This document shows, piece after piece, positions 1,326-62,489 of a DNA stretch of 64,000 nucleotides. The translations under genes were made by a program, and so were the position numbers. This DNA comes from a bacterium. Its GTDB lineage: Bacteria > Patescibacteriota > Patescibacteriia > JAGPKW01. Below the pieces are notes generated by a model, which worked only from the letters and a program-made list of their open reading frames with translations, ran no database searches and was not told the DNA's origin. The stretch's first letter is position 1, and each line of letters opens with the position of its first letter. The stretch covers positions 150,538 through 214,537 of the forward strand of contig JAJXYN010000009.1 of assembly GCA_021780535.1 (NCBI GenBank), written 5' to 3'.

Positions 1326-1434
<109 letters not shown>

Positions 1435-1567
1435 CAATATTCTTCTTTAGTTTTTCAGTTATAGAAGACTTATAGACTTAAAATTAAATAGAGATTTAGA
1501 ATATATTTTAAAATTTGCTTGTAGCGTCTCAATATTAACCAATATATTGAATTTCATCATTATTGTG

Positions 1568-4534
<2,967 letters not shown>

Positions 4535-4949
4535 ACAAGAATAACGAAATTCTTGTTAATTCTCTCGAATGTTAAAAAACATATTTAAGTAACAATATAT
4601 GAGAAATTACATATATTAATTAATACTCTTTATACTCGCTTTTTCATAGGCAGACTTAATACCTATGAAAAAATATTCTAAATTCACTCTCTATTTAATT
4701 TTTAATCTACAAATCTTTAACAACTGAGTTTAGGCTAAAATATTTTTTAGACTATGTCAAATGTTAAATTTTATGACAATAAAAAATAACCCGTGGCATT
4801 TATTATTATAAATTGTGGTAATAATAGCAAATGCTTAGAGGTTATTAAATAAAACTTGGAACTATATAACTTAAGCGTTCTAATTTTTCTCCCTACTTCT
4901 TCTTTTTTCTTATTTTTGGATGTTAACTATTATAGTTCATAAAAAAAAA

Positions 4950-34151: not shown

Positions 34152-34238
34152 CTGGGTAGTTGGCGGAGTGGTCAATCGCAACAGACTGTAAATCTGTCGG
34201 CCTACGGCCTTCGGGGGTTCAAATCCCTCACTGCCCAC
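34152..34238 (+). tRNA. tRNA-Tyr (GTA), long variable arm, CCA encoded
   Basis: Acceptor GGGTAGT/ACTGCCC with one G-U pair. Anticodon loop ACTGTAAATCT gives anticodon GTA. Extended variable arm GTCGGCCTACGGCCTTC. T-loop GGTTCAAATCC. Discriminator A followed by CCA. Confidence 0.85.
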
Positions 34239-34242
34239 CACC

Positions 34243-39500: not shown

Positions 39501-39576
39501 TCCGGGATAGCTCAGTTGGTAGAGCAGTTGACTGTTAATCAATTGGTCGTGGGTTCGAGTCCCGCTCCCGGAGCCA
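39501..39576 (+). tRNA. tRNA-Asn (GTT), CCA encoded
   Basis: Acceptor TCCGGGA/TCCCGGA. D-arm GCTCAGTTGGTAGAGC. Anticodon loop CTGTTAA gives anticodon GTT. T-arm GTGGGTTCGAGTCCCGC. Discriminator G followed by CCA. Confidence 0.88.
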
Positions 39577-42980: not shown

Positions 42981-43613
42981 ATGAAAAATGGAACAATAAT
43001 GATAGGTGGATCAGACTCTAACGATAATTTTAGAAAAGTATTTGATTTAAAAATCACAAATGGTTTTCCTATAATATCAACTACTGATAAAGATTTATCA
43101 ATAGAATGTAATAATAAAATAATAAATCATACCAATATAAATCACATATCTATCCCGGCAGATTTAAATATTCATCTTACTGGAAAACAAAATGAACATT
43201 ATTTTTTTATCGAAAGAATTACAAATAACGGATTATTAAATAGTGATTCATATAATATTTTTAGTTTATTTAGTATGCCAATAGAAAATTATGATTTTCC
43301 AGTTGGGACATGGAATCAGGCTGAAATATTTGGAATTAAAAAAGACGGCCTATTTAATAATAAAACCGGTATGTTTGTTGAGTTTTTTGTTTTTAAAAAT
43401 AGTTTTGATTTAAATACCTTGAATGCTTTATATCCATTTAAAGATAGCTCCATGAGAGAGCCTTATATTCTTGGGCCATATAATTTTAGTGAAATTATAA
43501 GAAAGGATAGAAAAAATATAAAACCAGATTTTAAATTTGTAACAAGAGTTGGTTTTTACGAAAACACAGACAATGAATCAAAAATTATAATTCCTTTTGA
43601 TATAAGAGGTTAA
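42981..43613 (+). CDS. Hypothetical protein (210 aa)
   Basis: Open frame between the R-M module and the recombinase. Confidence 0.4.
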   Translation: MKNGTIMIGGSDSNDNFRKVFDLKITNGFPIISTTDKDLSIECNNKIINHTNINHISIPADLNIHLTGKQNEHYFFIERITNNGLLNSDSYNIFSLFSMPIENYDFPVGTWNQAEIFGIKKDGLFNNKTGMFVEFFVFKNSFDLNTLNALYPFKDSSMREPYILGPYNFSEIIRKDRKNIKPDFKFVTRVGFYENTDNESKIIIPFDIRG

Positions 43614-44902
43614 ACTTCAATAATAATTTCCTTATTTTTTATTACAAATTTACTCTTAATGCATTCAGTCAATTGTTTCTTCTGTTCTAAGTTTCCATCT
43701 CTTAGAATAAACTTAGCATAAGTTCTCATATCAATAATATCATTATGACTATCTTCTTTAGATATCCCGAGCACGTTTCTTCTAAAGCTATTATATCTCT
43801 GTATTTCTTCTTCAATAGTTTTATTAATACCTAACTCATCAACTTTCAATTTATCTATTATCTCTATAAGTTGTTTAGTTACTTCTTCTTCTCTAATATA
43901 AGTATTCTTACAATCTCTATCTCTACCGTGGGAACATCCATAATATATGTAATGCAATATTTTTCCATTTTTAAGTTTCTTTCTTTTATGTTCTCCAACC
44001 ATACCTGAGCCACATAATCCACATTTAAATAATCCTGAAAAAGTAAATTCATAAGAATTTCCATTTGAGAAACATGTATCTTTTCCAATCTTTTCTTGTA
44101 CTAAGTCATATATTTCTTTTGTAGTTAAAGTTTCGTGTTTTCCTTGATACCAATTGCCACTATCTTTAGGATATTCAAACATTCCATAATAGAATGTATT
44201 TTTTATTATTCTAAAGATATTTCCTAAACTCATCATTTTTCCATTTACTGATTTGTAGTTAATACTTTTTAACCAATCTAATATCTTTCTACCAGAACAA
44301 TTATCATAAGCTATTTTTCTAAACATTTCTGTTATTATCGGTCCTCTATATGGGTCTACATTTACATATCCTTTTTTATCTACATTCTTTTCATTTAGAT
44401 ATCCAACCGGTGCTTGTCCTATCCATAGACCCATACCAACTTTTGCTTTTAAACCTCTTTTTACATTTATACTTTTATTATCATTTTCTAGTTTAGCTTG
44501 ACCACCAAGTATCATTAACATAAATTTATCATTTGGAGTATTTTTAAATACTTGATTATATGTTCTTATTTCTTTAAGTCTATGGTTATCTATTAAGTCT
44601 ACAATCATTCCTAAGTCTCCAGCATTTCTTGAAATTCTATCAGAATTCCATGTAAGTAGAGCATCAAACATTCCATTATTTATATCTCTTATTAGAGAAT
44701 TAAAAACCTCTCTTTTTCCTGATTCTTTTGCTGAATGACTTTCTCTTCTAACCTCTACTATATTAAGTCCTTCTTTTTCTGCTATCTGTGTCATTTCTTT
44801 AATCTGAGAGTCTATTGAAAGAGCTTGTCTTTCATCTTCTTCTGTTGATTTTCTTGCATAAAGACAGTATTTTAATGGTTTTTGTTCTAATATTTGTTCC
44901 AT
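43610..44902 (-). CDS. Large serine recombinase (resolvase/invertase-type catalytic domain + recombinase domain + zinc ribbon)
   Basis: N-terminal YARKSTEEDERQALSIDSQ (catalytic Ser region), ...DALLTWNSDRISR, and a C-terminal CGLCGSGM...YYGCSHGRDRDC zinc ribbon. Confidence 0.85.
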   Translation of the reverse strand: MEQILEQKPLKYCLYARKSTEEDERQALSIDSQIKEMTQIAEKEGLNIVEVRRESHSAKESGKREVFNSLIRDINNGMFDALLTWNSDRISRNAGDLGMIVDLIDNHRLKEIRTYNQVFKNTPNDKFMLMILGGQAKLENDNKSINVKRGLKAKVGMGLWIGQAPVGYLNEKNVDKKGYVNVDPYRGPIITEMFRKIAYDNCSGRKILDWLKSINYKSVNGKMMSLGNIFRIIKNTFYYGMFEYPKDSGNWYQGKHETLTTKEIYDLVQEKIGKDTCFSNGNSYEFTFSGLFKCGLCGSGMVGEHKRKKLKNGKILHYIYYGCSHGRDRDCKNTYIREEEVTKQLIEIIDKLKVDELGINKTIEEEIQRYNSFRRNVLGISKEDSHNDIIDMRTYAKFILRDGNLEQKKQLTECIKSKFVIKNKEIIIEV

Positions 44903-46615: not shown

Positions 46616-46722
46616 ATAAACAGTAGATAAAACACTTTACTTTAGGGCTATTATAAGCTAATATACTAATACAATTCAATTTGCCTAAACTAATGTTTAT
46701 AACATTGGCATGGCATAAAATT

Positions 46723-46850
46723 CGTTGAAAGATAAAATTGGTCTCATGACCAGTATTTTTGCTTTCAACGTCTACACCCGAAAGGATGTAGGGTTACCCT
46801 CGAAAGAGATGTAACCATAAATGCTGTGTCGTGGGGCCTTTTTGTTTCTA
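46723..46850 (+). promoter_or_regulatory. Candidate structured 5' leader RNA with two GAAA-tetraloop hairpins
   Basis: Nested helices: cgttgaaag...ctttcaacg enclosing tggtc-tcat-gacca, then ctacaccc-GAAA-ggatgtag and ggttac-cctc-GAAA-gagat-gtaacc. GC is elevated. It sits about 50 nt upstream of the 46896 gene. Confidence 0.3.
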
Positions 46851-47405: not shown

Positions 47406-48830
47406 TTATATTACTCTTATTTTCAATTTATCTTTCTTAATTCCATGTATTATTCCCATAGAAAAAGCATCAACCAAATCATCATGATTTTTCTCTATAC
47501 CAAAATTTAATAATTGTTTTATTAATTCTTCAACTCCTTCGTTTGGAAAGAATATTAAACCTCTTTGAACATATATTGAAGCCATGTTTAATCTTGTAGT
47601 TTTATCTTTTCCATTTGGATTAAACTCTTCTGAAGAATATCCATCTTTTGAAAGCATTTGTATTAATGAAGCTTGATAGCCAATGGATTCTATTAATATT
47701 TTAGTTCTACCAGTTTCTATTAAATTATCATAAATATTCTTTGCATATTCTATAACTCTTGGTGATTGTAGTCTTTTATTTACAACATTAGGAAGAATAT
47801 ATAATTCATTTTGTTCTGTTTTAATGTTCTTATATATTGCAAAAGAAACCATTGCTGTATAGTCTGCTTTTTCATGTTCCTTAAGGGCTGGGTCTATAGA
47901 TATTATATTCATAATGAATTTATAGTCAGGATTATTACTTGGCAATTCTTTATAGTATTTAATCCAATCTTTTTTAAATATTTGGTAATCATCTGGTAAT
48001 ATCGTAAGCATATATTCTCTTTGAAAAGATATTTCATTACCAATACTTTTTCTTAAGTCTTCAACTTCTTCTTGTGATGAAAACTTCTCTTTCCATAATA
48101 TTTCTTCATCTTTAACCAATGGATATTCTTTATATATCCCATTAATCTCTTTATTTCTTATTTTATTTTTCATTCTCATAATAAGAGAGTCTTCATGAAG
48201 TAAATTACCAACTAATATTATTTTAGTATCTTTATCTCCAAGAGGTACTATTTCAGATGTAAACCAAGTTTCAAGCTTGTTTCTGCTTTCAATACTCCTT
48301 ACACTTTCTAAATCTTCTATATCATCACAGATAATTAAATCTGGTCTCGTTTCTTTATATCTAATACCTCTAATACTTGTTTCAAAAGATGCACATTTTA
48401 TTGTTGCATCTATTTTTTTAAAATGAATTGATTTCTGATTTATTACTATATTTCTATCAATTAAATTAAAATCATTTCTTAATAATTCATTATTCTCAAT
48501 TTCTGATATTATGTTTTGAAAATGTATTTTAGCTTGATCTTGAGTTTTAGAAATTATCAAAACAAACTTCTTTTTATTCTTTCCAAGCACAGACCATAAA
48601 GCATAAGATAATGTTATTATTGTACTCTTAGCTGATCCACGGAAAGCTGTTAGCACAGAAAACTTATTCTTATCATTATTTATCACTTCAAATATTTCTT
48701 GTTGAAATTCTGCTAGTTTATATTTAACATAATTTCTTAAGTATATGAAAAAGAAATACATATTATCTTCGTATGCAATATTTTTTCTTAGTATCTTATT
48801 TTCAATTATTTCATTCAACAATTTGTTCAT
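47406..48830 (-). CDS. Phage terminase large subunit (TerL)-like ATPase/nuclease
   Basis: Walker A-like FRGSAKST and Walker B LIICDD in the N-terminal half. C-terminal nuclease motifs IISIDPALKE...ADYTAMV and HDDLVDAFSMG. Confidence 0.7.
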   Translation of the reverse strand: MNKLLNEIIENKILRKNIAYEDNMYFFFIYLRNYVKYKLAEFQQEIFEVINNDKNKFSVLTAFRGSAKSTIITLSYALWSVLGKNKKKFVLIISKTQDQAKIHFQNIISEIENNELLRNDFNLIDRNIVINQKSIHFKKIDATIKCASFETSIRGIRYKETRPDLIICDDIEDLESVRSIESRNKLETWFTSEIVPLGDKDTKIILVGNLLHEDSLIMRMKNKIRNKEINGIYKEYPLVKDEEILWKEKFSSQEEVEDLRKSIGNEISFQREYMLTILPDDYQIFKKDWIKYYKELPSNNPDYKFIMNIISIDPALKEHEKADYTAMVSFAIYKNIKTEQNELYILPNVVNKRLQSPRVIEYAKNIYDNLIETGRTKILIESIGYQASLIQMLSKDGYSSEEFNPNGKDKTTRLNMASIYVQRGLIFFPNEGVEELIKQLLNFGIEKNHDDLVDAFSMGIIHGIKKDKLKIRVI

Positions 48831-49218
48831 CTTCTTTTTTATATAATGGTGATTTTTGAAGTGCTGAAATGATTCTCATCTTGTCGTCATTAGAAAGTTT
48901 TGATTCTATTACAGCATCAATAAGTTTTGATTTATTTCTATATCTATCATGATTATGAGTTAACCAAAATTTAACGGATTCTATTTTTCCATCTTTAACA
49001 TTCTTAATTAATGCATTTTCAGCAACATCATTTATAGTTTCTATTCCTACATGTATTTTTTCATCGACCTTTGTTTTAAATTTTGGATCTTTTTTAAACC
49101 ATTCATAAATGGTAGATCTTGGAATATTTAATTTAACACAAACACTCTGCACTATAGGATATTCTTCTATAAGCTCTAAAAACTTTTTCTTAAGTTGTGT
49201 CTGTATTTTTCTATCCAT
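48811..49218 (-). CDS. Small HTH protein, terminase small subunit-like
   Basis: 135 aa with the HTH VCVKLNIPRSTIYEWFKK. It lies immediately upstream of, and overlaps, the TerL-like gene. Confidence 0.5.
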   Translation of the reverse strand: MDRKIQTQLKKKFLELIEEYPIVQSVCVKLNIPRSTIYEWFKKDPKFKTKVDEKIHVGIETINDVAENALIKNVKDGKIESVKFWLTHNHDRYRNKSKLIDAVIESKLSNDDKMRIISALQKSPLYKKEDEQIVE

Positions 49219-49954
49219 TTTTTATTAAAACAGCATCAATGCCTGTTAATTTTTTATATCTTTTTATAATTGTATCTACATGTTTTTCTTCTATTTCTAT
49301 TGCGTAACATTTTCTTCCTGTATGTTCTGAAGCTATTATTAAACTTCCACTTCCTGCAAAACCGTCAAAAACAATATCATTAATATTTGTGTTATTAAGA
49401 ATTAATCTTCTAAGTAATGAGATTGGTTTCATTGTGGAATGTAATTTACTTTTCTGAGGTCTAGGACAAAATATTATACTTTTATCTTTTGATTTAACAA
49501 ACTTATGTTTCTTATACCATCCATAAGCCATAAGCTCATGCTGAGGTAAATAGTCTAGTCTACCAATTACAGCAGAGTTTTTAATCCATATTAAAAGTTG
49601 TGAGAATTTTATATTACATTTATCCATTGCTTTCTTAAGTGAGAATATCATTTTATCTGTATTAAAAATGTATATTGAATTTTTCTCATTCAAATATGGT
49701 TTTATATTTTCCATCCAATCAATCATGAATTTTTCATAATCATCTTCATTACTTATATTGTCATTTTGGATTTCAATATCACAAGATAATTTTGCAAATC
49801 CTTTCTTATTTTCTACATATGAAATTCCGTAAGGCACGTCTGAAATGATTGAGTCTATCTTACTTTCACCAATTAAATCTTTTAGTAATTTTTCATCACG
49901 ACAGTCACCCATAGCAAGTTTATGTTCTCCAAGTTGATATATTTTATAGCTCAT
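49211..49954 (-). CDS. Beta-class (N6A/N4C) DNA methyltransferase
   Basis: IISDVPYG (DPPY-type motif IV) precedes IVFDGFAGSGS (motif I FxGxG), a permuted order typical of the beta class. Confidence 0.7.
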   Translation of the reverse strand: MSYKIYQLGEHKLAMGDCRDEKLLKDLIGESKIDSIISDVPYGISYVENKKGFAKLSCDIEIQNDNISNEDDYEKFMIDWMENIKPYLNEKNSIYIFNTDKMIFSLKKAMDKCNIKFSQLLIWIKNSAVIGRLDYLPQHELMAYGWYKKHKFVKSKDKSIIFCPRPQKSKLHSTMKPISLLRRLILNNTNINDIVFDGFAGSGSLIIASEHTGRKCYAIEIEEKHVDTIIKRYKKLTGIDAVLIKNG

Positions 49955-49963
49955 ATTGTTTTA

Positions 49964-51241
49964 TTATTTATTTAGTTTAATAGCTTTCTTACCAGTAAGT
50001 TCTTCAAATCTATCTAAAATCACCTGACAAAATATTGGATCTTTTTCTATTCCAATAAACTTTCTTTTAAGTCCCAAGCAAGCAACAGCAAGAGAACCAG
50101 ATCCGGTACAAGCATCAAAAATTAAGTCATTTATTTTAGAACACCTTCTAAGTGATTTCTCATAAAGCGTAACTGGCTTTTGAGTTGGATGAAGATATTT
50201 TATCCCAGCAATTCTTGGCACTAACCATATATCAAGCAAATCCAAAATATCATCTGATAATCTATTTCCAGAAGATATTTCTTTATTCATGATTTCGTTT
50301 AGATTTTTTATGCTTTCATTAAGATATGGTTTACCAATAGTTCCGTATACACAAGGTTCATAACATTTATTCATTGCAACTTTTGGAGTTGGATTTGCAG
50401 AGTTCTTTATCCATATTGCAGTTCTTTTTGTAGATATATTTAATTCTCTATAAACCTCTTGGATTAGTCCTGTATAATTTTGATCACAAAATGAAAAGAA
50501 ATGGGAATCTTTTTTTGTGTAATTCTTTGAATTTTCTATTATAGTCTTTACAAATTTTTTATAATTATTATAACTCTTATTATCATCAACATTGCCACCA
50601 TACTTATTATTTTTACCAAGTCCTTTGCTATAGTCATATTTAATATTGTAAGGAAAATCTGTAAAGAAAATATCAATCTTTTCTTCATTAAAGATTTTCT
50701 TATATGTATCAATTTCAAGAGAATCACCACATATTATTTTTATATTTTCAGCAAGCAAAAAAACATCACCAGTTTTTATATCTGTTGTTTTTACTTTTTC
50801 TAAATGTTTTGTAACATCAAACTCGTCTTCTTCTAATTCTAAAACATCATCAAAGACACTTGATAAATCTGTATCACTAAAACCAATATTTAATAATAAG
50901 TCAGAATCATAATCTTTAAGAAGATTAAAATCCCAATCTCCGTTATTTATATTTAATCTTAAATTTAATTCCTTTTCTTTTTCTAAATTTAAGTTAAGAA
51001 ATATTACAGGAATCTTTTTATATCCAAGTTCTTTTAAAGCTTCAAATCTTTGATTGCCACCGATTATAATATTCAATCTATCAGTATTTGAATTTACTAA
51101 TAGAGGCTGGACAATATCAAACTTAGTTATGCTTTCTTTTAATTGTTCGAAAGCAATGGGGGTGATGTACCTTGGATTGTACTCACAAGTTTTTAAAGAA
51201 GTTATATCAACTTCTACGATGTTTAAATTTTCTTTTTTCAT
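49964..51241 (-). CDS. ParB-N domain fused to beta-class DNA methyltransferase
   Basis: N-terminal ParB/Srx fold (NPRYITP...GGNQRFEALKELG), then FTDFPYNIKYD and IFDACTGSGS methyltransferase motifs. This architecture is common for phage and plasmid orphan methyltransferases. Confidence 0.7.
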   Translation of the reverse strand: MKKENLNIVEVDITSLKTCEYNPRYITPIAFEQLKESITKFDIVQPLLVNSNTDRLNIIIGGNQRFEALKELGYKKIPVIFLNLNLEKEKELNLRLNINNGDWDFNLLKDYDSDLLLNIGFSDTDLSSVFDDVLELEEDEFDVTKHLEKVKTTDIKTGDVFLLAENIKIICGDSLEIDTYKKIFNEEKIDIFFTDFPYNIKYDYSKGLGKNNKYGGNVDDNKSYNNYKKFVKTIIENSKNYTKKDSHFFSFCDQNYTGLIQEVYRELNISTKRTAIWIKNSANPTPKVAMNKCYEPCVYGTIGKPYLNESIKNLNEIMNKEISSGNRLSDDILDLLDIWLVPRIAGIKYLHPTQKPVTLYEKSLRRCSKINDLIFDACTGSGSLAVACLGLKRKFIGIEKDPIFCQVILDRFEELTGKKAIKLNK

Positions 51242-51653: not shown

Positions 51654-52586
51654 ATGCAAAATTTATTAGTATTTCATAATGACTTTATAAGAGAAAAAAG
51701 ATTGGCAAAGAAGTCTGAAGCTACTATCACTTCCTATAAAGAAAGTTTCAAATTGTTCTATAATTTTCTTAAATATAAAAAATTGGAAGAAATCAACAAG
51801 TCAAAAGTTGTAGAATTTCTTGAATATTTAAACACACGAAAAAGAATTATTGGTAGAGGCTATGAAGTAACCGGTGTTTCTGCAAATACAATTATTACTT
51901 ATAAAAATAGGTTGTCTCCATTCTTTGTTTGGCTAAAACAAAATCGTTATATTAAGATAAACCCGTTTGATAATATTGAACTACCAAGAATAGAAAAAGA
52001 TAGAAGAGAAAAGATTTTACATAAAGAACAAGTACAAAGAATATTTAATGCTATAAGCTATAACATCAAATGGAGGGATAATTTTTTAAAGAAAAGAAAT
52101 GAAACCATATTTTCGGTTTTATTTTATACAGGATTAAGAAAGGGTGAACTTCTTGGGTTAAAAGTTTCTGACATTGATTTGAATAATAAGATTATAAATA
52201 TTAACGCTTCAACTAGTAAATCAAGAAGAACTAGAAGAATATCAATGAATGATAATCTTTATTTAATACTAGAAGATTATTTAAATAGCAGGAAGAAATA
52301 CAATAATCCATATCTATTTATATCTAGTAAGGATAAAGTTTTAACTAAAAATGGATTGAAACATTTAGTTAATAAAATAGAAAATGTCATTAAATTCAAA
52401 TTTTATTTACATCAATTTAGACATACCTTTGCCGTAAATACTTTGAATAATATTGGTGATGTTTATACCGTTCAAAGTCTGTTAGGACATCAAAAAATAA
52501 CAACAACTGCAATTTATTTATCCTACATTCCTGAAGAGAAAAAAAGGATTGCAGTTAATTCTTTAAACCTTGATGATTTAGTTTAG
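51654..52586 (+). CDS. Tyrosine recombinase/integrase
   Basis: N-terminal SAM-like core-binding domain. C-terminal catalytic box HQFRHTFAVNTL...LLGHQKITTTAIYL (R...H-x-x-R...H...Y). Confidence 0.8.
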   Translation: MQNLLVFHNDFIREKRLAKKSEATITSYKESFKLFYNFLKYKKLEEINKSKVVEFLEYLNTRKRIIGRGYEVTGVSANTIITYKNRLSPFFVWLKQNRYIKINPFDNIELPRIEKDRREKILHKEQVQRIFNAISYNIKWRDNFLKKRNETIFSVLFYTGLRKGELLGLKVSDIDLNNKIININASTSKSRRTRRISMNDNLYLILEDYLNSRKKYNNPYLFISSKDKVLTKNGLKHLVNKIENVIKFKFYLHQFRHTFAVNTLNNIGDVYTVQSLLGHQKITTTAIYLSYIPEEKKRIAVNSLNLDDLV

Positions 52587-53053: not shown

Positions 53054-56000
53054 ATGAAACTAATAGAATGGTCAAAAATAGATAATGACAAAACATTTCA
53101 AAAATTAGTAAATGATGTTTTTTCTCTAGAAATAAATCATCCAGGTTTTATATTTAGTAATCCTTATATAGGAAAAGATGGCGGATGGGATGGTATGTAT
53201 AAGGGCAAATATATGGAAATAGATGGCACATGGTCATTTCAATCAAAATATACTAAAAATAATGGCATCGAAGCTTGTAGATCTTTAAAGTCACAAATAA
53301 TAAAAGAATTAGAGAAATCTAAAACCAATAAGGTTGATAATTTAATATTATTAACAAATGCTGATTTAACTGTAGATCAAGTAAATGAATTAATATTATT
53401 AAATACTGGGTATGTAAAAAATTTTTTCATTTGGCCAAAAGAAAATCTTGATAGTAAAATTAAAGATTATCCTTGGATAAGACATAGATATTTTAATGAT
53501 GTACAACAACCAGCATTTGCCCCTTTTATAAATATAGATAACGATGATTATAATCATGTTGAAATAGAAACAAAAAGAGAACAAGAAGAAAAAATGTTTA
53601 GTGACTTTTTATTAGATGACAAAAAAATTCTTATAATTCATGCTAGTGGCGGATGTGGTAAAACATACTTCATAAATCAAATATTTAAAAAATACTCTAA
53701 TAATACTAATGAATATAATTTTTTATATTATATTCCAGGAATAAGAGATGTTGACGATGCTCTGAATGATGAATTAGATATAAGTAAAAATGTTATAATA
53801 TTTTTAGATGATTCCGAAAGATACATTGAAGATGTTACAAAAAAATTATTATCAAGGGTTAATTCATATTCTCCTGGAAAAATAAAAATAGTTCTAATAA
53901 CTAGGACATCTGGAAAATCTATAATAATTGATATTATAAATTCTTTAGGAATAGCAATTGATAAATATGAAGAAATAGAACTTCAGAAACTACCAAACGA
54001 TAGTTTAATTAAAATTTTGAATTTTTTTGCAAAAAAAAATGTTTCTAATTCCGAAGAAATCTTAAATGAAGTATCTAGTAATTTATTTTTATTAATATCT
54101 ATAGGTAAATTAATTTCAAAAAATAAAGGTAAAGTAAATGTTAAATCAATAAAAAATAAGATAAAGTATGATTTAGAAAAAGATGTTTGCGACTCATTAA
54201 AAATTTTTTCTTTAAGTGACCAAAAAATTAAAGAATTACTTTTTGAACTCGCTATACTTATACCATTTAACGATGATAATTTAGATATATTGGAAAAAAT
54301 ATCAAATAAATTATCTTTAAACCAGAGTGATATTAAAAAATATATACAAAAACTAAAAACAGATAAAATTCTTATTAACATAGGCTACTCTATAAGATTT
54401 TATTCTGATATGGTTGGGGATGTATACTTATCTGTAATTTTTGATTCTGACGATGGAACATTAATAAAAAATATTCTGAATAGTTGGTTTGAGGTATTTC
54501 CTGAAAAAATAATATCGAATATATCCTCTGCAGTGAAGCATTCAGATGGTGATTTCAATAAAGATCCAATAAGAAATACAATAAAAGAGATATCAATAAA
54601 TTCAACAAAATTAGACGATTTTAATAAAATAAATAAACTTAAGACATTCTCTCAAATAGCTTATATAATTCCAGATGAAATAATAGATTTAATTTATTGC
54701 TTTCTTCAAACGTCTGAAAAAATCACAACTGATGATTGTGGTCCAATTATAATTAATTTATTATATTTGCAAGAAGAATCTATTAGAAAAAAACTTATTG
54801 AATTAATTTTATTTGTATCCGATAAAAACATAGAGGGAAAATATCAGAATTATAAAATAGAAACTTTAGCAAAACGTTTTGTTTCACCTATTTATAATAC
54901 ATTAGAATGTGCAACTTCATCATTGAATTTAGTATCAAACATTTCAAAGAAACAAAACTTAACCAACTCGGAGATAAAAATTATAAAATATTCATTAGAA
55001 GAATCTTTATCATCTTCGCATGATTATGAAGAAAGTTATGGCATAAAAATGACCTTTTCTAAAAAAATTCTAAATTATAAAAATGAGGTTAAAGAAAAGA
55101 TTGACATATATAGAGATTTAGCCATGAATACATTACATGAATGTTTAAAAAATAATGATGATGATATAAAAAATGAGTTCATTGATTTAATTTCTGATAT
55201 CGGAAATGGAGAAACGTCAAAAAATTATAGCATATGGGATAGAATAATATTAGACAAAGAAAAAACAATTGATTTTATAGAGGAAATTTTAAAAACCCCC
55301 ACAAATAATAAAATAATTGCATCATTAGAAGATATATTAATAAGAGAATGGTCTAATAATAATATTTATAAAGATGGTACTAATAACAAAATATCAAAAA
55401 TATTAATAAATTTTCCAAGAAACCCAGAATATATTATTTTCAAAAATTTTATATCTAAAGATATAATAATTTATGATTTTAAAAACATAGAAGAAATAGC
55501 GCCAGACAAGGATAGATGGTCGTGGATTATTGATAACTATTTTAGAAATGAGGATATAAAAATGGATGAATTTGAAAAAACTGTGGAGGAGATATCTAAA
55601 AAATACAACAAGAAAGAGGATATAATAAGTTATTTAATTTCTTTATATAAAGATGTTAAAGACAATCTAACGTGGCAATATATACCATTGATAGAAACTT
55701 GGTCAAAATATAATAAATCTGTTTTTATAGAAATAATAAACGATGAAACTTTATTAAATAAATTACCTATCATATTTAATTTGGGTATATATATAGTAGC
55801 CGCTGATGACGATGAAAAATATATCACATCATTAGCAAATAAAATTTTAAATGATGATATTAAAAATATAAATATTCAATATTTATACAATTTATTAAAT
55901 TTAATAGATAGACATAAAATTAGTAATAAAATTTTTATCCCATGGATTTTAGAGATTATAAAAAACTCAAATCTATCAGCTCAGAGTGGAATATTACATA

Positions 56001-56878
56001 GATCATATTTTATTTTTAAAGATAGATCTGAGGAAGATAAAAAAGAAGTTTTTAAAATAATGGATTGCGTTTTGGATAATATTAAGGACCCAAGAGTTCT
56101 TGATATGTTTGAGTTTCTTTTGCATAGCTCTAAAACATGGAATATAGAAGAAGATGAGCTAGAAACTTTAAGAAATAAGCTAACTAATATTATAAAAGAT
56201 TTACATAATATAGAACATCATTCTAATGAATTGCTAACATTTTCTATAAATAATAATATGGATAAGTTTATAGATTTTTTAGAATACAGATTGTTAAAGC
56301 ATAAAGAGTTTGTAGAAAAAAATGATTATTCTTTTGATGCGATACCATATGAAGGTTTTCGTTTATTGAAAAATATAATATCAAATTATAATGATTTTTA
56401 TAATCTTATTTTAAAAACAAATTCTTGGATAAAGGATAATTTATTTTATCCATTTGAATTGGATAATTTGCTTAAAGAATTAGAAAATTGCGATACATAC
56501 ATAGATGAATTTATAGAAAAAAATATTAATTCTAATGACAAAAAGATATTTAGCATTCTTATTAATTTTTTATATAGCATTGATTTTACAGAAAAATCTA
56601 GCATTATTTTTTTAAACACATTAATTAATTCTCAGAATCTTGGATTAATAGACGAAGCGAAGAATTTATTTATTCATAAAGTTTTAAGCGGCTCGTATTC
56701 ATCTAGCATAGGAGAAGCTCCACCGGCTTTAGTAAATAAGAAAAATATTTTGTATAAATTAGAAAAAGAATGTCCAAATGGAATAATAAAGGTTTTTATA
56801 TCTTCTATTAAAGATTCTATAGAAAAACAAATAGAAGATAATATAAAAGAAGGTCAAGAATTAATTAACCCTAAATAA
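53054..56878 (+). CDS. Giant Mrr-like nuclease / P-loop NTPase / helical-repeat protein (Avs/STAND-like candidate antiviral sensor)
   Basis: aa 30-80: FIFSNPYIGKDGGWDGMYKGKYMEIDGTWSFQSKY matches the Mrr_cat PD-(D/E)xK block (D-G-G-x-D ... Q-x-K). aa about 195: IHASGGCGKTYFINQ (Walker A). About 245: VIIFLDDSERY (Walker B). Then about 1000 aa of alpha-helical repeat-like sequence. Confidence 0.65.
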   Translation: MKLIEWSKIDNDKTFQKLVNDVFSLEINHPGFIFSNPYIGKDGGWDGMYKGKYMEIDGTWSFQSKYTKNNGIEACRSLKSQIIKELEKSKTNKVDNLILLTNADLTVDQVNELILLNTGYVKNFFIWPKENLDSKIKDYPWIRHRYFNDVQQPAFAPFINIDNDDYNHVEIETKREQEEKMFSDFLLDDKKILIIHASGGCGKTYFINQIFKKYSNNTNEYNFLYYIPGIRDVDDALNDELDISKNVIIFLDDSERYIEDVTKKLLSRVNSYSPGKIKIVLITRTSGKSIIIDIINSLGIAIDKYEEIELQKLPNDSLIKILNFFAKKNVSNSEEILNEVSSNLFLLISIGKLISKNKGKVNVKSIKNKIKYDLEKDVCDSLKIFSLSDQKIKELLFELAILIPFNDDNLDILEKISNKLSLNQSDIKKYIQKLKTDKILINIGYSIRFYSDMVGDVYLSVIFDSDDGTLIKNILNSWFEVFPEKIISNISSAVKHSDGDFNKDPIRNTIKEISINSTKLDDFNKINKLKTFSQIAYIIPDEIIDLIYCFLQTSEKITTDDCGPIIINLLYLQEESIRKKLIELILFVSDKNIEGKYQNYKIETLAKRFVSPIYNTLECATSSLNLVSNISKKQNLTNSEIKIIKYSLEESLSSSHDYEESYGIKMTFSKKILNYKNEVKEKIDIYRDLAMNTLHECLKNNDDDIKNEFIDLISDIGNGETSKNYSIWDRIILDKEKTIDFIEEILKTPTNNKIIASLEDILIREWSNNNIYKDGTNNKISKILINFPRNPEYIIFKNFISKDIIIYDFKNIEEIAPDKDRWSWIIDNYFRNEDIKMDEFEKTVEEISKKYNKKEDIISYLISLYKDVKDNLTWQYIPLIETWSKYNKSVFIEIINDETLLNKLPIIFNLGIYIVAADDDEKYITSLANKILNDDIKNINIQYLYNLLNLIDRHKISNKIFIPWILEIIKNSNLSAQSGILHRSYFIFKDRSEEDKKEVFKIMDCVLDNIKDPRVLDMFEFLLHSSKTWNIEEDELETLRNKLTNIIKDLHNIEHHSNELLTFSINNNMDKFIDFLEYRLLKHKEFVEKNDYSFDAIPYEGFRLLKNIISNYNDFYNLILKTNSWIKDNLFYPFELDNLLKELENCDTYIDEFIEKNINSNDKKIFSILINFLYSIDFTEKSSIIFLNTLINSQNLGLIDEAKNLFIHKVLSGSYSSSIGEAPPALVNKKNILYKLEKECPNGIIKVFISSIKDSIEKQIEDNIKEGQELINPK

Positions 56879-56883
56879 AAAAT

Positions 56884-57708
56884 ATGACAAAAAATTCATA
56901 CGATAAAATTTGGGGTTATGTAGAAAAGCTTTATATACATTGTTATAGAGTCGACGGTTTTGTTAAATTTTTAAAATCTAATGAAATATTACTACCAGAC
57001 GATTTCTATAATAATTTTGAAATATATTCTTTTATGACAACTGAGAATTGTAATTTCTCCGATTTTATGATTTCGAATGTTGATGATAGTAAATATAAAA
57101 AAATAATTAGCCAAGTGATATTTGATAAAAAAATTATTAAAACAAAGGATATTGATTGGAATTATCTTGGAGTTAAAATAAAAGAGTGGTATCCAAAATT
57201 ACTTAAAGAAGTAGATAATGTTAAAATATCTCTGTATGAAAACATAAACGAGAAAGATTTGTTAATATATAATACAAAAAACCCATTTCTCGATCATTTA
57301 ATATCAGAGATTAATGATACTTATAATAATAAAAACTATGTAGCAGTAATAATGTTGATGAGAAAATTAATGGAATGCATGATAATAATAATATTTGAAA
57401 CATATTTTCCAAAAACTCACAAAGGAACATTCAATAAATCAAATCACGAATTATGGTATAACTATAGCACTCGTAGATATCAAGAATTTGAAACATTATT
57501 ATCTAATCTAGACTTAAAGCAAAATGATTTTCATGAAGATAGATTCTTAGTATCTGATACTTGCAAGGTTATAAAAAAATTCAAAGACGAGGCTAATAGA
57601 ATAGTCCATAGAGACTATAAAATACCAGATAAGATGATAGTTGATAATTATAAAATACCAGAAATGTATAATATGATTGCTAAAATATATAGCAAATATT
57701 GTTCATGA
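56884..57708 (+). CDS. Hypothetical protein (274 aa), same operon as the NTPase and TIR genes
   Basis: Starts 6 nt after the NTPase stop. No motif recognised. Confidence 0.45.
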   Translation: MTKNSYDKIWGYVEKLYIHCYRVDGFVKFLKSNEILLPDDFYNNFEIYSFMTTENCNFSDFMISNVDDSKYKKIISQVIFDKKIIKTKDIDWNYLGVKIKEWYPKLLKEVDNVKISLYENINEKDLLIYNTKNPFLDHLISEINDTYNNKNYVAVIMLMRKLMECMIIIIFETYFPKTHKGTFNKSNHELWYNYSTRRYQEFETLLSNLDLKQNDFHEDRFLVSDTCKVIKKFKDEANRIVHRDYKIPDKMIVDNYKIPEMYNMIAKIYSKYCS

Positions 57709-57776: not shown

Positions 57777-58814
57777 ATGCCAGAAAATAATAACGAAATG
57801 GATTTAGATGAATCTATAAAAAAAATTATAGAAATTCAAAATTTGATAAGACAAGGTCTAGCAAGGCCAGATGAAAAAAACAATGCTTTCAAAATAGCAA
57901 AAGATGCTACATCTAATTTTACAGATGATATTTTTAAAAGAAGAGCTGAAAAAGAAGAAAGAAATACGGGTTGGTCGGTGCAAACACACGATGGGTTTGT
58001 AGCCTCATCAGAAGCTAGTCAATTAGACGGACTTCTAAATTTATTAAAGGAATATAGAGACACTTTTTATTCTACAAAAAATACTGAGCAAAATTATCCA
58101 GAAATAGAAAAAAATGAAGAAATAGAAAAAGATATTAATAATTTTGGTTCAAAAATATTTATTAGCTATAACACAAAACATAAAAATTTTGCCGGAAAAA
58201 TAAAAGAGTCACTTTATGAAAATAAGATAGATTCTTTTTTAGCACATGAAGATTTAGAAGTATCTACTGAATGGAAAATAGAAATATTAGAAGCTCTAAA
58301 AAAATCAAATGTATTTATAATATTACTTTCTAGCGATTATTATGAATCTCCTTGGTGTTATCAAGAGTCTGGAATTATAGCTTATTTAGAAAATTTTAGA
58401 GATAATGTAACAATAATACCAATTTCTATAGATGGCACAATTCCAAAAGGATTTATTGGTCATAGACAATCTAAACCAATAATAAATATGGAAGAATTTG
58501 ATTTTTCTATACTTTTGCCAGGTTTATTTATTGATAATCCTGATTGGGTTGTAAATTTTTTAATTAAAAAAATAGAAGGGTCAGGAAGTTTTAGAAATGC
58601 CGAAAATAATTTTGAAAAAATATTACCATACTTAGGAAAAATGAATAAAAAATATGGTAAAAAATTACTAGAAGTATGCGTAAAAAATGACCAAATTTAT
58701 AATGCTAGTCTTTGTATAGGTGAATATATATCAAAAGCAATAGCTTTGTATGGCGATTTATTAAGTAAGGAAGATCTAGATTTTTTAAATAATAAAATTG
58801 AAGCCTATAAATAA
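57777..58814 (+). CDS. TIR-domain protein
   Basis: Central region DIFISYNTKHKNFAGKIKESL...SNVFIILLSSDYYESPWCYQESGI has the TIR hallmarks: FISY start, hydrophobic core strand, and SxWCxxE with a conserved Glu. It is flanked by about 120-aa N-terminal and about 100-aa C-terminal extensions of unknown function. Confidence 0.7.
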   Translation: MPENNNEMDLDESIKKIIEIQNLIRQGLARPDEKNNAFKIAKDATSNFTDDIFKRRAEKEERNTGWSVQTHDGFVASSEASQLDGLLNLLKEYRDTFYSTKNTEQNYPEIEKNEEIEKDINNFGSKIFISYNTKHKNFAGKIKESLYENKIDSFLAHEDLEVSTEWKIEILEALKKSNVFIILLSSDYYESPWCYQESGIIAYLENFRDNVTIIPISIDGTIPKGFIGHRQSKPIINMEEFDFSILLPGLFIDNPDWVVNFLIKKIEGSGSFRNAENNFEKILPYLGKMNKKYGKKLLEVCVKNDQIYNASLCIGEYISKAIALYGDLLSKEDLDFLNNKIEAYK

Positions 58815-58825
58815 GTGTGCTATAT

Positions 58826-58988
58826 AAATAAATCTAATATTAGCCAATAATTATCAACACAAGTCAATCAAATACTACACTACGTACTGTCCAATTTGTC
58901 CAATTTTTTCTATTGAAAAATGAGATGCTAGTGCATCTCATTTTATATTCTCTGAAGTATCAAAACGCTTGCTGGTATTGAACTCAAT
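58826..58988. repeat. Direct repeat B1 (about 160 bp), paired with B2 at 62287..62446
   Basis: atctaatattagccaataattatcaa...aatttgtccaattttttctattgaaaaatgagatgctagtgcatctcatttt...ctgaagtatcaaaacgcttgctggtattgaact. Contains a terminator-like hairpin. About 85-90% identical to B2. Confidence 0.75.
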
Positions 58989-61376: not shown

Positions 61377-61600
61377 TTATTCAATAATTATTTCTTTATC
61401 TTTTATTAAAAATTTACTCTTGATGCACCCCGTTAATTGTTTCTTCTGTTCTATATTTCCATCTCTCAATATAAACTTAGCATAAGTTTTCATATCAATA
61501 ATATCATTGTGATTATCTTCTTTAGATATGCCAAGAACGTTTCTTCTAAAACTATTATATCTCTGTATTTCTTCTTCTCTAATATAAATTTAAGCATGAA
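61376..61600 (-). pseudogene. Truncated remnant (3' about 220 bp) of a second large serine recombinase gene
   Basis: About 88% nucleotide identity by eye to 43610-43830, the C-terminal coding end of the intact recombinase. Similarity stops abruptly near 61600. Confidence 0.7.
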
Positions 61601-62286: not shown

Positions 62287-62446
62287 TTAAATATCTAATA
62301 TTAGCCAATAATTATCAATATAAGTCAATCAAATACTACGCTACATACTGTTCAATTTGTCCAATTTTTTCTATTGAAAAATGAGATGCTAATGCATTTA
62401 AGACACTCTTCTCTGAAGTATCAAAATGCTTGCTGGTATTGAACTA
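62287..62446. repeat. Direct repeat B2, paired with B1
   Basis: Same atctaatattagccaataattatcaa...ttctattgaaaaatgagatgcta...ctgaagtatcaaaatgcttgctggtattgaact blocks as B1. The hairpin is partly degraded. Confidence 0.75.
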
Positions 62447-62489
62447 AATATGGTGGATTAGTTTTAAATTTGACTTTATTGTTTAAAAG

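Follow-up and report, generated by a model that had tools for sequence, protein, structure and literature searches.

A probable NAD-destroying TIR defence protein with a conserved C-terminal helical domain and a modular N-terminus

Introduction

SpbK, a stand-alone TIR NADase (an enzyme destroying nicotinamide adenine dinucleotide, NAD+) that senses a phage protein directly, and the TIR-like Swarozyc and Evangelion have been worked out only recently. SpbK is the anti-SPbeta TIR NADase of the Bacillus subtilis element ICEBs1 (PDB 9phb). It comprises a 4-helix N-terminal domain (amino acids (aa) 1-94), an 18-residue linker and the TIR domain, and docking of the N-terminal domain on the dodecameric phage portal leads to TIR clustering, head-to-tail assembly of the active site and switching on of the NADase (PMC12847820). 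Swarozyc and Evangelion are DUF4062 TIR-like NADases with an auxiliary sensing region, in which activation by a phage multimer (the portal) leads to the depletion of NAD+ and to abortive infection (bioRxiv 10.64898/2026.05.01.722283, 10.64898/2026.06.25.731849). Here we describe a gene for a 345-aa TIR protein, probably an NAD-destroying defence protein, in a 64,000-nucleotide stretch of contig JAJXYN010000009.1 from a Patescibacteriota assembly (GCA_021780535.1); the whole stretch is hereafter called the window.

The product is a three-part TIR protein. It follows the known plan in which a stand-alone TIR NADase bears an accessory domain, and it is built on a conserved domain not described before and on an N-terminus that is modular. 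A sequence-only reading of the gene had placed the TIR core between two extensions that match nothing recognisable, and had suggested a possible new TIR effector architecture. Its flank lengths (about 120 aa N-terminal and 100 aa C-terminal) were near those measured here, ~125 aa and ~110-115 aa, and neither aa 1-125 nor aa 236-345 is covered by any Pfam, NCBIfam, PHROGs or PADLOC model. The N-terminal flank is indeed free of homologues, whereas the C-terminal flank has hundreds, all uncharacterised. Nor are the two extensions equivalent: at the C-terminus is an obligate, conserved partner of the TIR subtype, at the N-terminus an optional, hypervariable add-on. The general design itself is not novel, with SpbK (a TIR NADase) and Swarozyc and Evangelion (TIR-like NADases) as characterised precedents.

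A catalytic-type TIR domain

Gene calls on 6 contigs gave an identical 345-aa protein; the four places shown represent four different samples (contig DAIEHF010000006.1 of the NCBI metagenome-assembled genome (MAG) GCA_027355865.1, one Logan run and two ENA assemblies). The AlphaFold2 model of the protein had a mean predicted local distance difference test (pLDDT) score of 77.7. The central TIR domain was matched by Pfam TIR_2 at aa 127-230 (E = 3.8e-18, 66.6 bits, cutoff 28) and by Pfam TIR (E = 1.6e-13, 51.3 bits, cutoff 21.3), the Pfam match stopping at profile position 103 of 122. In the model, the domain runs through bA (126-130), aA (133-148), bB (153-155), aB (164-176), bC (177-184), aC (192-207) and bD (212-217), and then a conserved loop, DGTxPxGFxxxxQS. 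The best Foldseek matches of the model in PDB were TIR structures, for example, 4c6t_D (root-mean-square deviation 3.2 Å, 105 columns) and 4w8h (2.2 Å, 109).

The SxWCxxE motif noted in the sequence-only reading is present as S191-P-W-C-Y-Q-E197. Across the family described below W193, C194, Q196 and E197 are invariant or near-invariant, and Q196, E197 and G199 are invariant in both the 22- and the 35-member alignments. A comparison of the family profile with solved structures recovered Cat1, plant TIR NADases, SARM1-type TIRs and SpbK. The Glu of 'WCWDE' in Cat1 and that of 'WCLDE' in RPPT-TIR line up with E197, and the family pattern 'wclQEsG' aligns with 'YCLNEMG' of SpbK (positions N191, E192 and G194); the mutants of SpbK include N191R, E192A and G194R (PMC12847820). 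By the conserved Glu at the start of aC (WxxxE), the domain is predicted to be of the catalytic (NADase) type. The TIR-like fold and the alignment of E197 with a known catalytic Glu agree with the earlier reading, with the qualifications that only four strands were assigned by DSSP and that the Glu is placed in the active-site pocket by alignment alone.

The conserved C-terminal domain and its family

Directly after the TIR subtype comes an all-alpha domain (hereafter, CT). Structure prediction and a Foldseek search had been proposed for the flanks in the sequence-only reading, and for this one they gave a confident all-alpha model (pLDDT 94.8 and a predicted template modelling score, pTM, of 0.85 for CT modelled alone by AlphaFold2) and no fold match better than E = 0.19 in PDB or BFVD. 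The CT motifs are S269-x-x-x-R273-x-A275-E276 (SxSFRxAE) and N304-x-Q306, plus A310, with S269, R273, A275, E276, N304 and Q306 being invariant or near-invariant. The invariant polar residues are more like those of a binding site than those of a scaffold, which suggests a defined binding surface. The window protein has every invariant CT residue and is scored by the CT profile at E = 2.3e-32, the protein itself being part of the profile alignment.

A PDB protein named 'Dandelion' (9wwz_A, 9wxf_A; residues ~205-254) was considered as a relative of CT and rejected (E = 0.05, domain E = 4.3; missed by the broader profile). It shares the pattern S..F..A[ED]..F ... N.NQ with CT, a match that is not significant and serves as a lead only.

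A database search returned ~20 proteins of 195-277 aa (mostly 214-223) that align with aa ~125-345 at 31-50% identity. An exhaustive CT profile search over 1.84 billion cluster representatives (50% identity clusters) returned 465 proteins at E<=1e-3 and 116 at E<=1e-10, and the family is spread over more than 10 phyla, those of archaea included. We examined 172 sequences, consisting of 149 further top matches of this profile search and the proteins P0001-P0023. Complete proteins with both domains accounted for 109 of them, with the helical domain right behind the TIR subtype; ~45 were under 200 aa and fragment-like, and 7 longer proteins had no recognisable TIR domain, some of these having other domains (a proteasome-like region, an IS110 transposase). 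CT is a conserved, obligatory partner of this TIR subtype and nearly always occurs in fusion with it; about half of the complete members listed consist of the TIR-CT core and nothing else, as full proteins of ~220 aa.

Rare fusions were seen at L053 (3853-5326) and in proteins P0068, P0085, P0042 and P0157. They included TIR-CT proteins with ThuA or sigma-70 region 4 added at the C-terminus, a proteasome-like region with CT, and CT with an adenylate/guanylate cyclase domain; the last is an apparently frameshifted TIR-CT-cyclase in a Burkholderiales MAG.

We found no description of a TIR plus helical-domain family of this kind in the literature, a negative that amounts to absence of evidence and no more. 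The family has nothing beyond 'TIR domain' in Pfam 2025 and NCBIfam 2026, and PADLOC-DB 2.0.0 (2023) has no model for it, so such genes are probably overlooked by PADLOC-based defence annotation. The phyletic spread is patchy and reaches archaea, pointing to horizontal transfer. CT is of interest as a conserved domain joined to a well-understood enzyme, with no structural relative detected by Foldseek in PDB and BFVD and no functional precedent, and the members, as short single genes, would be inexpensive candidates for testing.

The variable N-terminal extension

The AlphaFold2 model shows three helices in the N-terminal extension (10-25, 31-64 and 77-101; pLDDT 40-74) and, after the third, an acidic low-confidence linker (~aa 102-125). 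The extension is genuine coding sequence and no over-called start. No stop interrupts its frame over 125 codons, the two remaining plus-strand frames having 13 and 14, and just 1 of 200,000 composition-preserving shuffles was stop-free. The GC content at the three codon positions (GC1/GC2/GC3 0.42/0.30/0.14) follows the same pattern as in the TIR and C-terminal parts. Before codon 238, in-frame ATG, GTG or TTG codons occur at codons 1, 8, 23 and 68 only; with no start codon between codons 68 and 238, a full TIR domain needs at least part of the extension.

Among the 109 complete representatives, 55 begin at the TIR domain, 46 have an extension of 90-136 aa and 8 have a longer one. The three-part layout is therefore not unique to the window protein, and what stands of the suggested new architecture is that the family is undescribed. 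Short and long forms are interspersed on the core tree, the nearest neighbour switching form in 28 of the 109. The extensions of 35 long forms fell into 22 BLAST-unrelated groups, five of which have two to eight members, so the extensions in these five are conserved and real. Apart from one weak winged-helix match, none of the 35 extensions had a Pfam match. The N-terminus is a swappable, hypervariable slot. The family of 465 clusters thus has a constant TIR plus helical core and an N-terminus that is modular and repeatedly exchanged, making it a natural experiment in the swapping of sensor modules on an immune effector.

The extension of the window protein has no homologue by full-length protein search, and it was unlike the 53 other family N-extensions by phmmer, BLAST and hhalign (best hhalign probability 1.3%). 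No match was found in PDB or by pattern scans of the JGI metagenomes and IMG/VR. A word-indexed search with aa 1-125 alone also returned nothing, a weak negative given that it missed the parent protein P0001 as well; its negatives call for caution with short, compositionally biased queries. The extension has no similarity to the neighbouring window proteins, and a pairing with any of them in the manner of effector-associated domains was dropped on that ground. A fusion of an upstream gene was likewise rejected as the source of the extension, the upstream open reading frames (ORFs) in L005 and L009 being dissimilar to each other and to it (translations compared by eye).

Comparison with described systems

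The TIR gene resembles SpbK in being a lone gene on a mobile element and in the order of its product's parts: ~95-100 aa of N-terminal helical domain, then a flexible linker, then the TIR domain. The two also align at the catalytic Glu and at the N/Q and G positions that flank it. The long-form profile matches SpbK at E = 6e-7. The N-terminal domains, however, have no detectable sequence similarity, and the likeness is architectural only; no homologous portal-binding 4-helix bundle was detectable in the window extension. The PADLOC spbK model gave 19.5 bits and covered aa 74-199 only. SpbK further differs in having a canonical five-stranded TIR and no C-terminal helical domain of ~110 aa.

Swarozyc and Evangelion are likewise single genes with a conserved NADase core and a region C-terminal to it. 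Their core is DUF4062, whereas the core here is a classical TIR_2/TIR domain; DUF4062 gave no match at E<=1 in the window protein and matches at E ~8e-4 in 2 of 35 relatives. The variable part is also at the other end: their C-terminal region is a diversified sensor, while in the window family the C-terminus is conserved and the N-terminus varies.

The best-scoring solved TIR relative was Cat1 (CRISPR-associated TIR 1, PDB 9mud; E = 2.9e-10), aligned from bA to bD including WCxxE. Cat1 is a type III CRISPR component whose activator is cyclic oligoadenylate. Unlike in Cat1, no cyclic-nucleotide sensor domain (such as SAVED) was detected in the window protein, and the scanned window proteins and the RNA-family matches included neither cyclase nor CRISPR genes. 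Matches to SAVED_TIR and CAP12 were weak and limited to the TIR part. The fused sensor and linked cyclase or CRISPR genes of cyclic-nucleotide-activated TIR effectors (TIR-SAVED, Pycsar/CAP12 TIR, Cat1) were thus not found here.

Thoeris ThsB is similar in being a stand-alone bacterial TIR protein of comparable size, and several ThsB models showed weak hidden Markov model similarity to the window protein (best E = 3.7e-5, 21.5 bits), with scores below the family level for Pfam ThsB_TIR (13.8 bits, cutoff 21.2) and ThcB4 (31 bits, cutoff 220). In contrast to ThsB, there is no ThsA partner in the family neighbourhoods and no ThsA-type domain (SIR2, Macro, transmembrane with SLOG) among the window neighbours, and CT lies outside the ThsB models. 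The best PADLOC match was PDC-S66 (E = 1.5e-6, 25.9 bits; aa 24-216 against profile positions 54-240 of 282), which is a candidate system only. It also has an N-terminal region followed by a TIR domain, but its profile ends ~40 positions past the TIR core and has no CT.

Genomic setting

The TIR gene is located on a mobile defence island bounded by recombinases. It belongs to a plus-strand run behind a tyrosine recombinase (51654-52586), and this run is preceded upstream by genes for a serine recombinase and two phage-type DNA methylases and by a terminase-like gene. The preceding genes in the run encode an nSTAND_NTPase5-type STAND NTPase and a 274-aa protein. At two other loci, L065 (4127-8912) and L067 (4140-8864), a homologue of the 274-aa protein comes immediately behind an nSTAND_NTPase5 gene of ~1285 aa and there is no TIR gene; the pairs consist of a protein of ~1275-1286 aa and then one of 274-303 aa. 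Because this pair recurs without the TIR gene, the TIR gene is not part of that system. The N-terminus of the STAND protein looks like a PD-(D/E)xK nuclease by sequence, with a weak PADLOC PDC-M58A match at aa 57-142, and the two genes together resemble an Avs-like defence system that has no name and is separate from the TIR gene.

We compared 53 family loci from Pseudomonadota, Leptospira, Omnitrophota, Elusimicrobiota, Ignavibacteriae, Chloroflexota, Acidobacteriota, Nitrospirota and Planctomycetota, and, among archaea, from Methanobacteriaceae and Thermoplasmatota. With the exception of four related alphaproteobacterial loci (three of them Bradyrhizobium), they have no neighbour family in common, and the 148 nearest-neighbour proteins match 111 different Pfam families, each at most three times. 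Some family members are found within a Mu-like prophage, or beside terminase, recombinase and Abi_C genes.

Proposed mechanism and alternatives

The explanation that we favour, with somewhat less than even confidence, is that the gene, carried on a mobile defence island, encodes an anti-phage enzyme that acts by abortive infection as a single, self-contained protein. Without infection, the TIR domain would be inactive. On infection, the lineage-specific N-terminal helical module (aa 1-101, on its flexible acidic tether) would bind a phage-derived, probably multimeric component, and this binding would gather several copies of the protein. The TIR domains would then build a composite inter-subunit active site, in which E197 would hydrolyse NAD+, and the depletion would abort the infection. 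CT, directly behind bD, would be a family-specific regulatory or assembly module that either holds the TIR domain off or templates the oligomer. What we infer here are the activity as an NADase, the nature of the trigger, the part played by each flank and the outcome in abortive infection.

Several results are consistent with this proposal, namely the conservation of the catalytic positions, the obligatory TIR-CT fusion, the optional hypervariable N-terminal slot, the absence of a partner gene and the mobile/defence setting. The sensor or assembly roles that the sequence-only reading had offered for the two flanks seem reasonable. The N-terminal module is probably the infection sensor and specificity determinant, by analogy with SpbK, where the portal binds the N-terminal domain and clusters the TIR domains.

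Other results weigh against it. Half of the family has no N-terminal extension, so sensing cannot generally depend on it and CT may be the real sensor. The model of the extension is of low confidence (pLDDT 40-74) and was built from one sequence. DSSP on the model assigned four of the five canonical strands and no bE, and the canonical DE surface of the TIR BE-interface assembly may therefore be altered. Many family members lie among housekeeping genes, outside recognisable defence islands, and there was one family match only in IMG/VR. TIR enzymes can also make signalling nucleotides rather than just deplete NAD+.

A wider proposal, possible though on balance doubtful, is that the TIR-CT core represents an unrecognised pan-prokaryotic TIR chassis, in which CT replaces or covers the aD-bE-aE face and a plug-in N-terminal slot takes interchangeable recognition modules. 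Activation would then be unlike that of the known BE-interface TIR filaments and possibly ligand-gated at the invariant S/R/E/N/Q site. The slot would have sampled dozens of unrelated small domains, of which the window protein carries a unique one, and the family would amount to a natural library of sensor domains on a single reporter enzyme.

The most serious alternative, which we regard as unlikely, is that the flank roles are reversed or different: CT would sense a conserved phage feature or a small-molecule alarm, and the extension would be a mere accessory, its task being, for instance, oligomerisation, autoinhibition, localisation or anti-anti-defence. In favour of this, CT occurs without an N-terminal extension in about half of the complete members, the invariant polar residues S269, R273, E276, N304 and Q306 are typical of a binding pocket and less so of a scaffold, and the sensing region of Swarozyc and Evangelion sits C-terminal to the TIR-like core. 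On the other hand, hypervariability at a fixed junction usually marks the part that faces a fast-evolving phage partner, SpbK senses through its N-terminal helical bundle, and CT is conserved across phyla that must meet very different phages.

A Thoeris ThsB-like signalling role, in which a cyclic ADP-ribose (cADPR) isomer or a His-ADPR-type messenger would be made on infection for an effector encoded elsewhere, appears less likely again. In its favour, the ThsB models of PADLOC are matched more often than any others within the family (26 of 35 members, best E = 3.3e-10), NCBIfam gives a weak match to the Thoeris type III protein ThcB4 (E = 1e-7), and SpbK also produces N1-cADPR. The ThsB and ThcB4 scores are nonetheless far under the family level and cover the TIR core only. 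No ThsA-like gene (SIR2, Macro, SLOG) or other conserved gene lies beside the window gene or its 53 relatives, and the lack of a linked ThsA or other partner makes such signalling less likely.

We consider it improbable that the protein has a role outside defence, as a prophage or mobile-element 'moron' acting on host NAD or nucleotide metabolism, an addiction or toxin module, or a nucleoside-processing enzyme with the TIR/nucleoside 2-deoxyribosyltransferase fold. Several relatives do lie amid housekeeping genes, one family member weakly matches Nuc_deoxyrib_tr (E = 0.0039), and the 2'-deoxyribosyltransferase 7o62_D is in the Foldseek list. Against this, the WC-x-Q-E-x-G signature is of the TIR NADase type, the patchy spread into archaea points to horizontal transfer, the window gene is beside a STAND system in a recombinase-bounded island, and no cognate antitoxin neighbour was found at the 53 loci.

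It is very improbable that the TIR protein is the effector arm of the adjoining STAND NTPase system, recruited via its N-terminal domain like the effector-associated domains. The genes are in the same orientation on the plus strand, the TIR gene starts 69 nucleotides (nt) past the 274-aa gene, and the helical N-terminal module is about the size of an adaptor domain. The pair, however, is found elsewhere without a TIR gene, the 53 TIR-family loci have no STAND neighbour, the extension is unlike any neighbouring protein, and the STAND protein seems to own an N-terminal nuclease-like effector region. Finally, it is scarcely credible that the extension is an artefact of annotation and that the true product is a ~220-aa core: the closest homologues are ~220 aa and no Shine-Dalgarno-like sequence was seen upstream of the ATG at 57777, but the 125-codon open frame in ~28% GC DNA, the coding pattern of its codon-position GC, the lack of a canonical start between codons 68 and 238 and the conservation of five N-extension families across clusters in other members all speak for a coding extension.

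Other features of the window

The coordinates of the TIR gene, its parts and the surrounding features are listed in Table 1. A terminator-like hairpin past the TIR gene probably marks the 3' end of the transcription unit. It is contained in one copy of a 157-nt repeat (90% identity between copies), whose copies lie directly 3' of the TIR gene and of an HD-domain gene; the hairpin is degraded in copy 2. The independent Logan contig L002 ends within this repeat, and Rfam gave no match in the 3' intergenic region that holds it. Possible readings of the repeat are a cassette-boundary element, a recombination element and a small mobile repeat.

Table 1 Features of the TIR gene and of the window (positions are those of the window).
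Feature	Coordinates	Strand	Description
TIR-protein gene (complete)	57777..58814	+	345 aa, ATG start, stop codon 58812-58814 (ORF list)
N-terminal extension	57777..58151	+	aa 1-125; proposed specificity/sensor module; orphan sequence
TIR domain	58152..58481	+	aa 126-235; Pfam, AlphaFold2 pLDDT 80-94, Foldseek and profile matches
SPWCYQE motif	58347..58367	+	aa 191-197; family alignments
Predicted catalytic Glu E197 codon	58365-58367	+	alignment with Cat1, RPPT-TIR and SpbK
C-terminal all-alpha domain CT	58482..58811	+	aa 236-345, about seven helices
Terminator-like 12-bp hairpin	58917..58944	+	~100 nt past the TIR-gene stop; terminator scan and repeat analysis
STAND pair	53054-57708	+	STAND NTPase and 274-aa protein
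nSTAND_NTPase5-type STAND NTPase	53054-56878	+	1274 aa; gene 1 of the conserved pair
274-aa protein without family match	56884-57708	+	gene 2 of the pair; ends 69 nt before the TIR gene
157-nt repeat, copy 1	58832-58988		3' of the TIR gene (+)
157-nt repeat, copy 2	62293-62449		3' of the HD-domain gene (+)
198-nt direct repeat, copy 1	43616-43813		3' end of the serine recombinase gene
198-nt direct repeat, copy 2	61380-61577		remnant just past the 428-aa ORF
Serine recombinase gene	43610-44902	-	
LOOT RNA motif	46682-46816	+	Rfam RF03000
Prophage-like block	47406-51241	-	
ORF, 261 aa	59090-59875	+	
ORF, 428 aa	60090-61376	+	
ORF, 200 aa	61647-62249	+	sub-threshold HD-domain match
23S and 5S rRNA genes	1326-4535	-	
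tRNA-Tyr	34154-34240		
tRNA-Asn	39501-39576		

Three ORFs in the same orientation lie 3' of the TIR gene and are possible further defence genes. The 261-aa and 428-aa ORFs had nothing above noise in Pfam, NCBIfam, PADLOC or PHROGs, and the HD-domain match of the 200-aa protein has E = 3.5e-4. Two copies of a 198-nt direct repeat, 89% identical, flank a 17.8-kb segment in which the TIR gene lies together with the STAND pair, the tyrosine recombinase and the prophage-like genes, an arrangement suggestive of a composite or tandem mobile element.

The prophage-like block contains a Terminase_6C large-subunit-like gene, a small helix-turn-helix protein and two N6/N4 DNA methylases (one with ParB_N). 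No structural phage genes were seen near it, and it may be a remnant or a satellite-type element. The LOOT motif (71.9 bits, gathering score 46.4) lies in the mobile region between ORFs of 528 and 165 aa. The rRNA genes are at the start of the window, within which there is no 16S gene, and outside them the window is AT-rich, with a GC content of ~20-32%.

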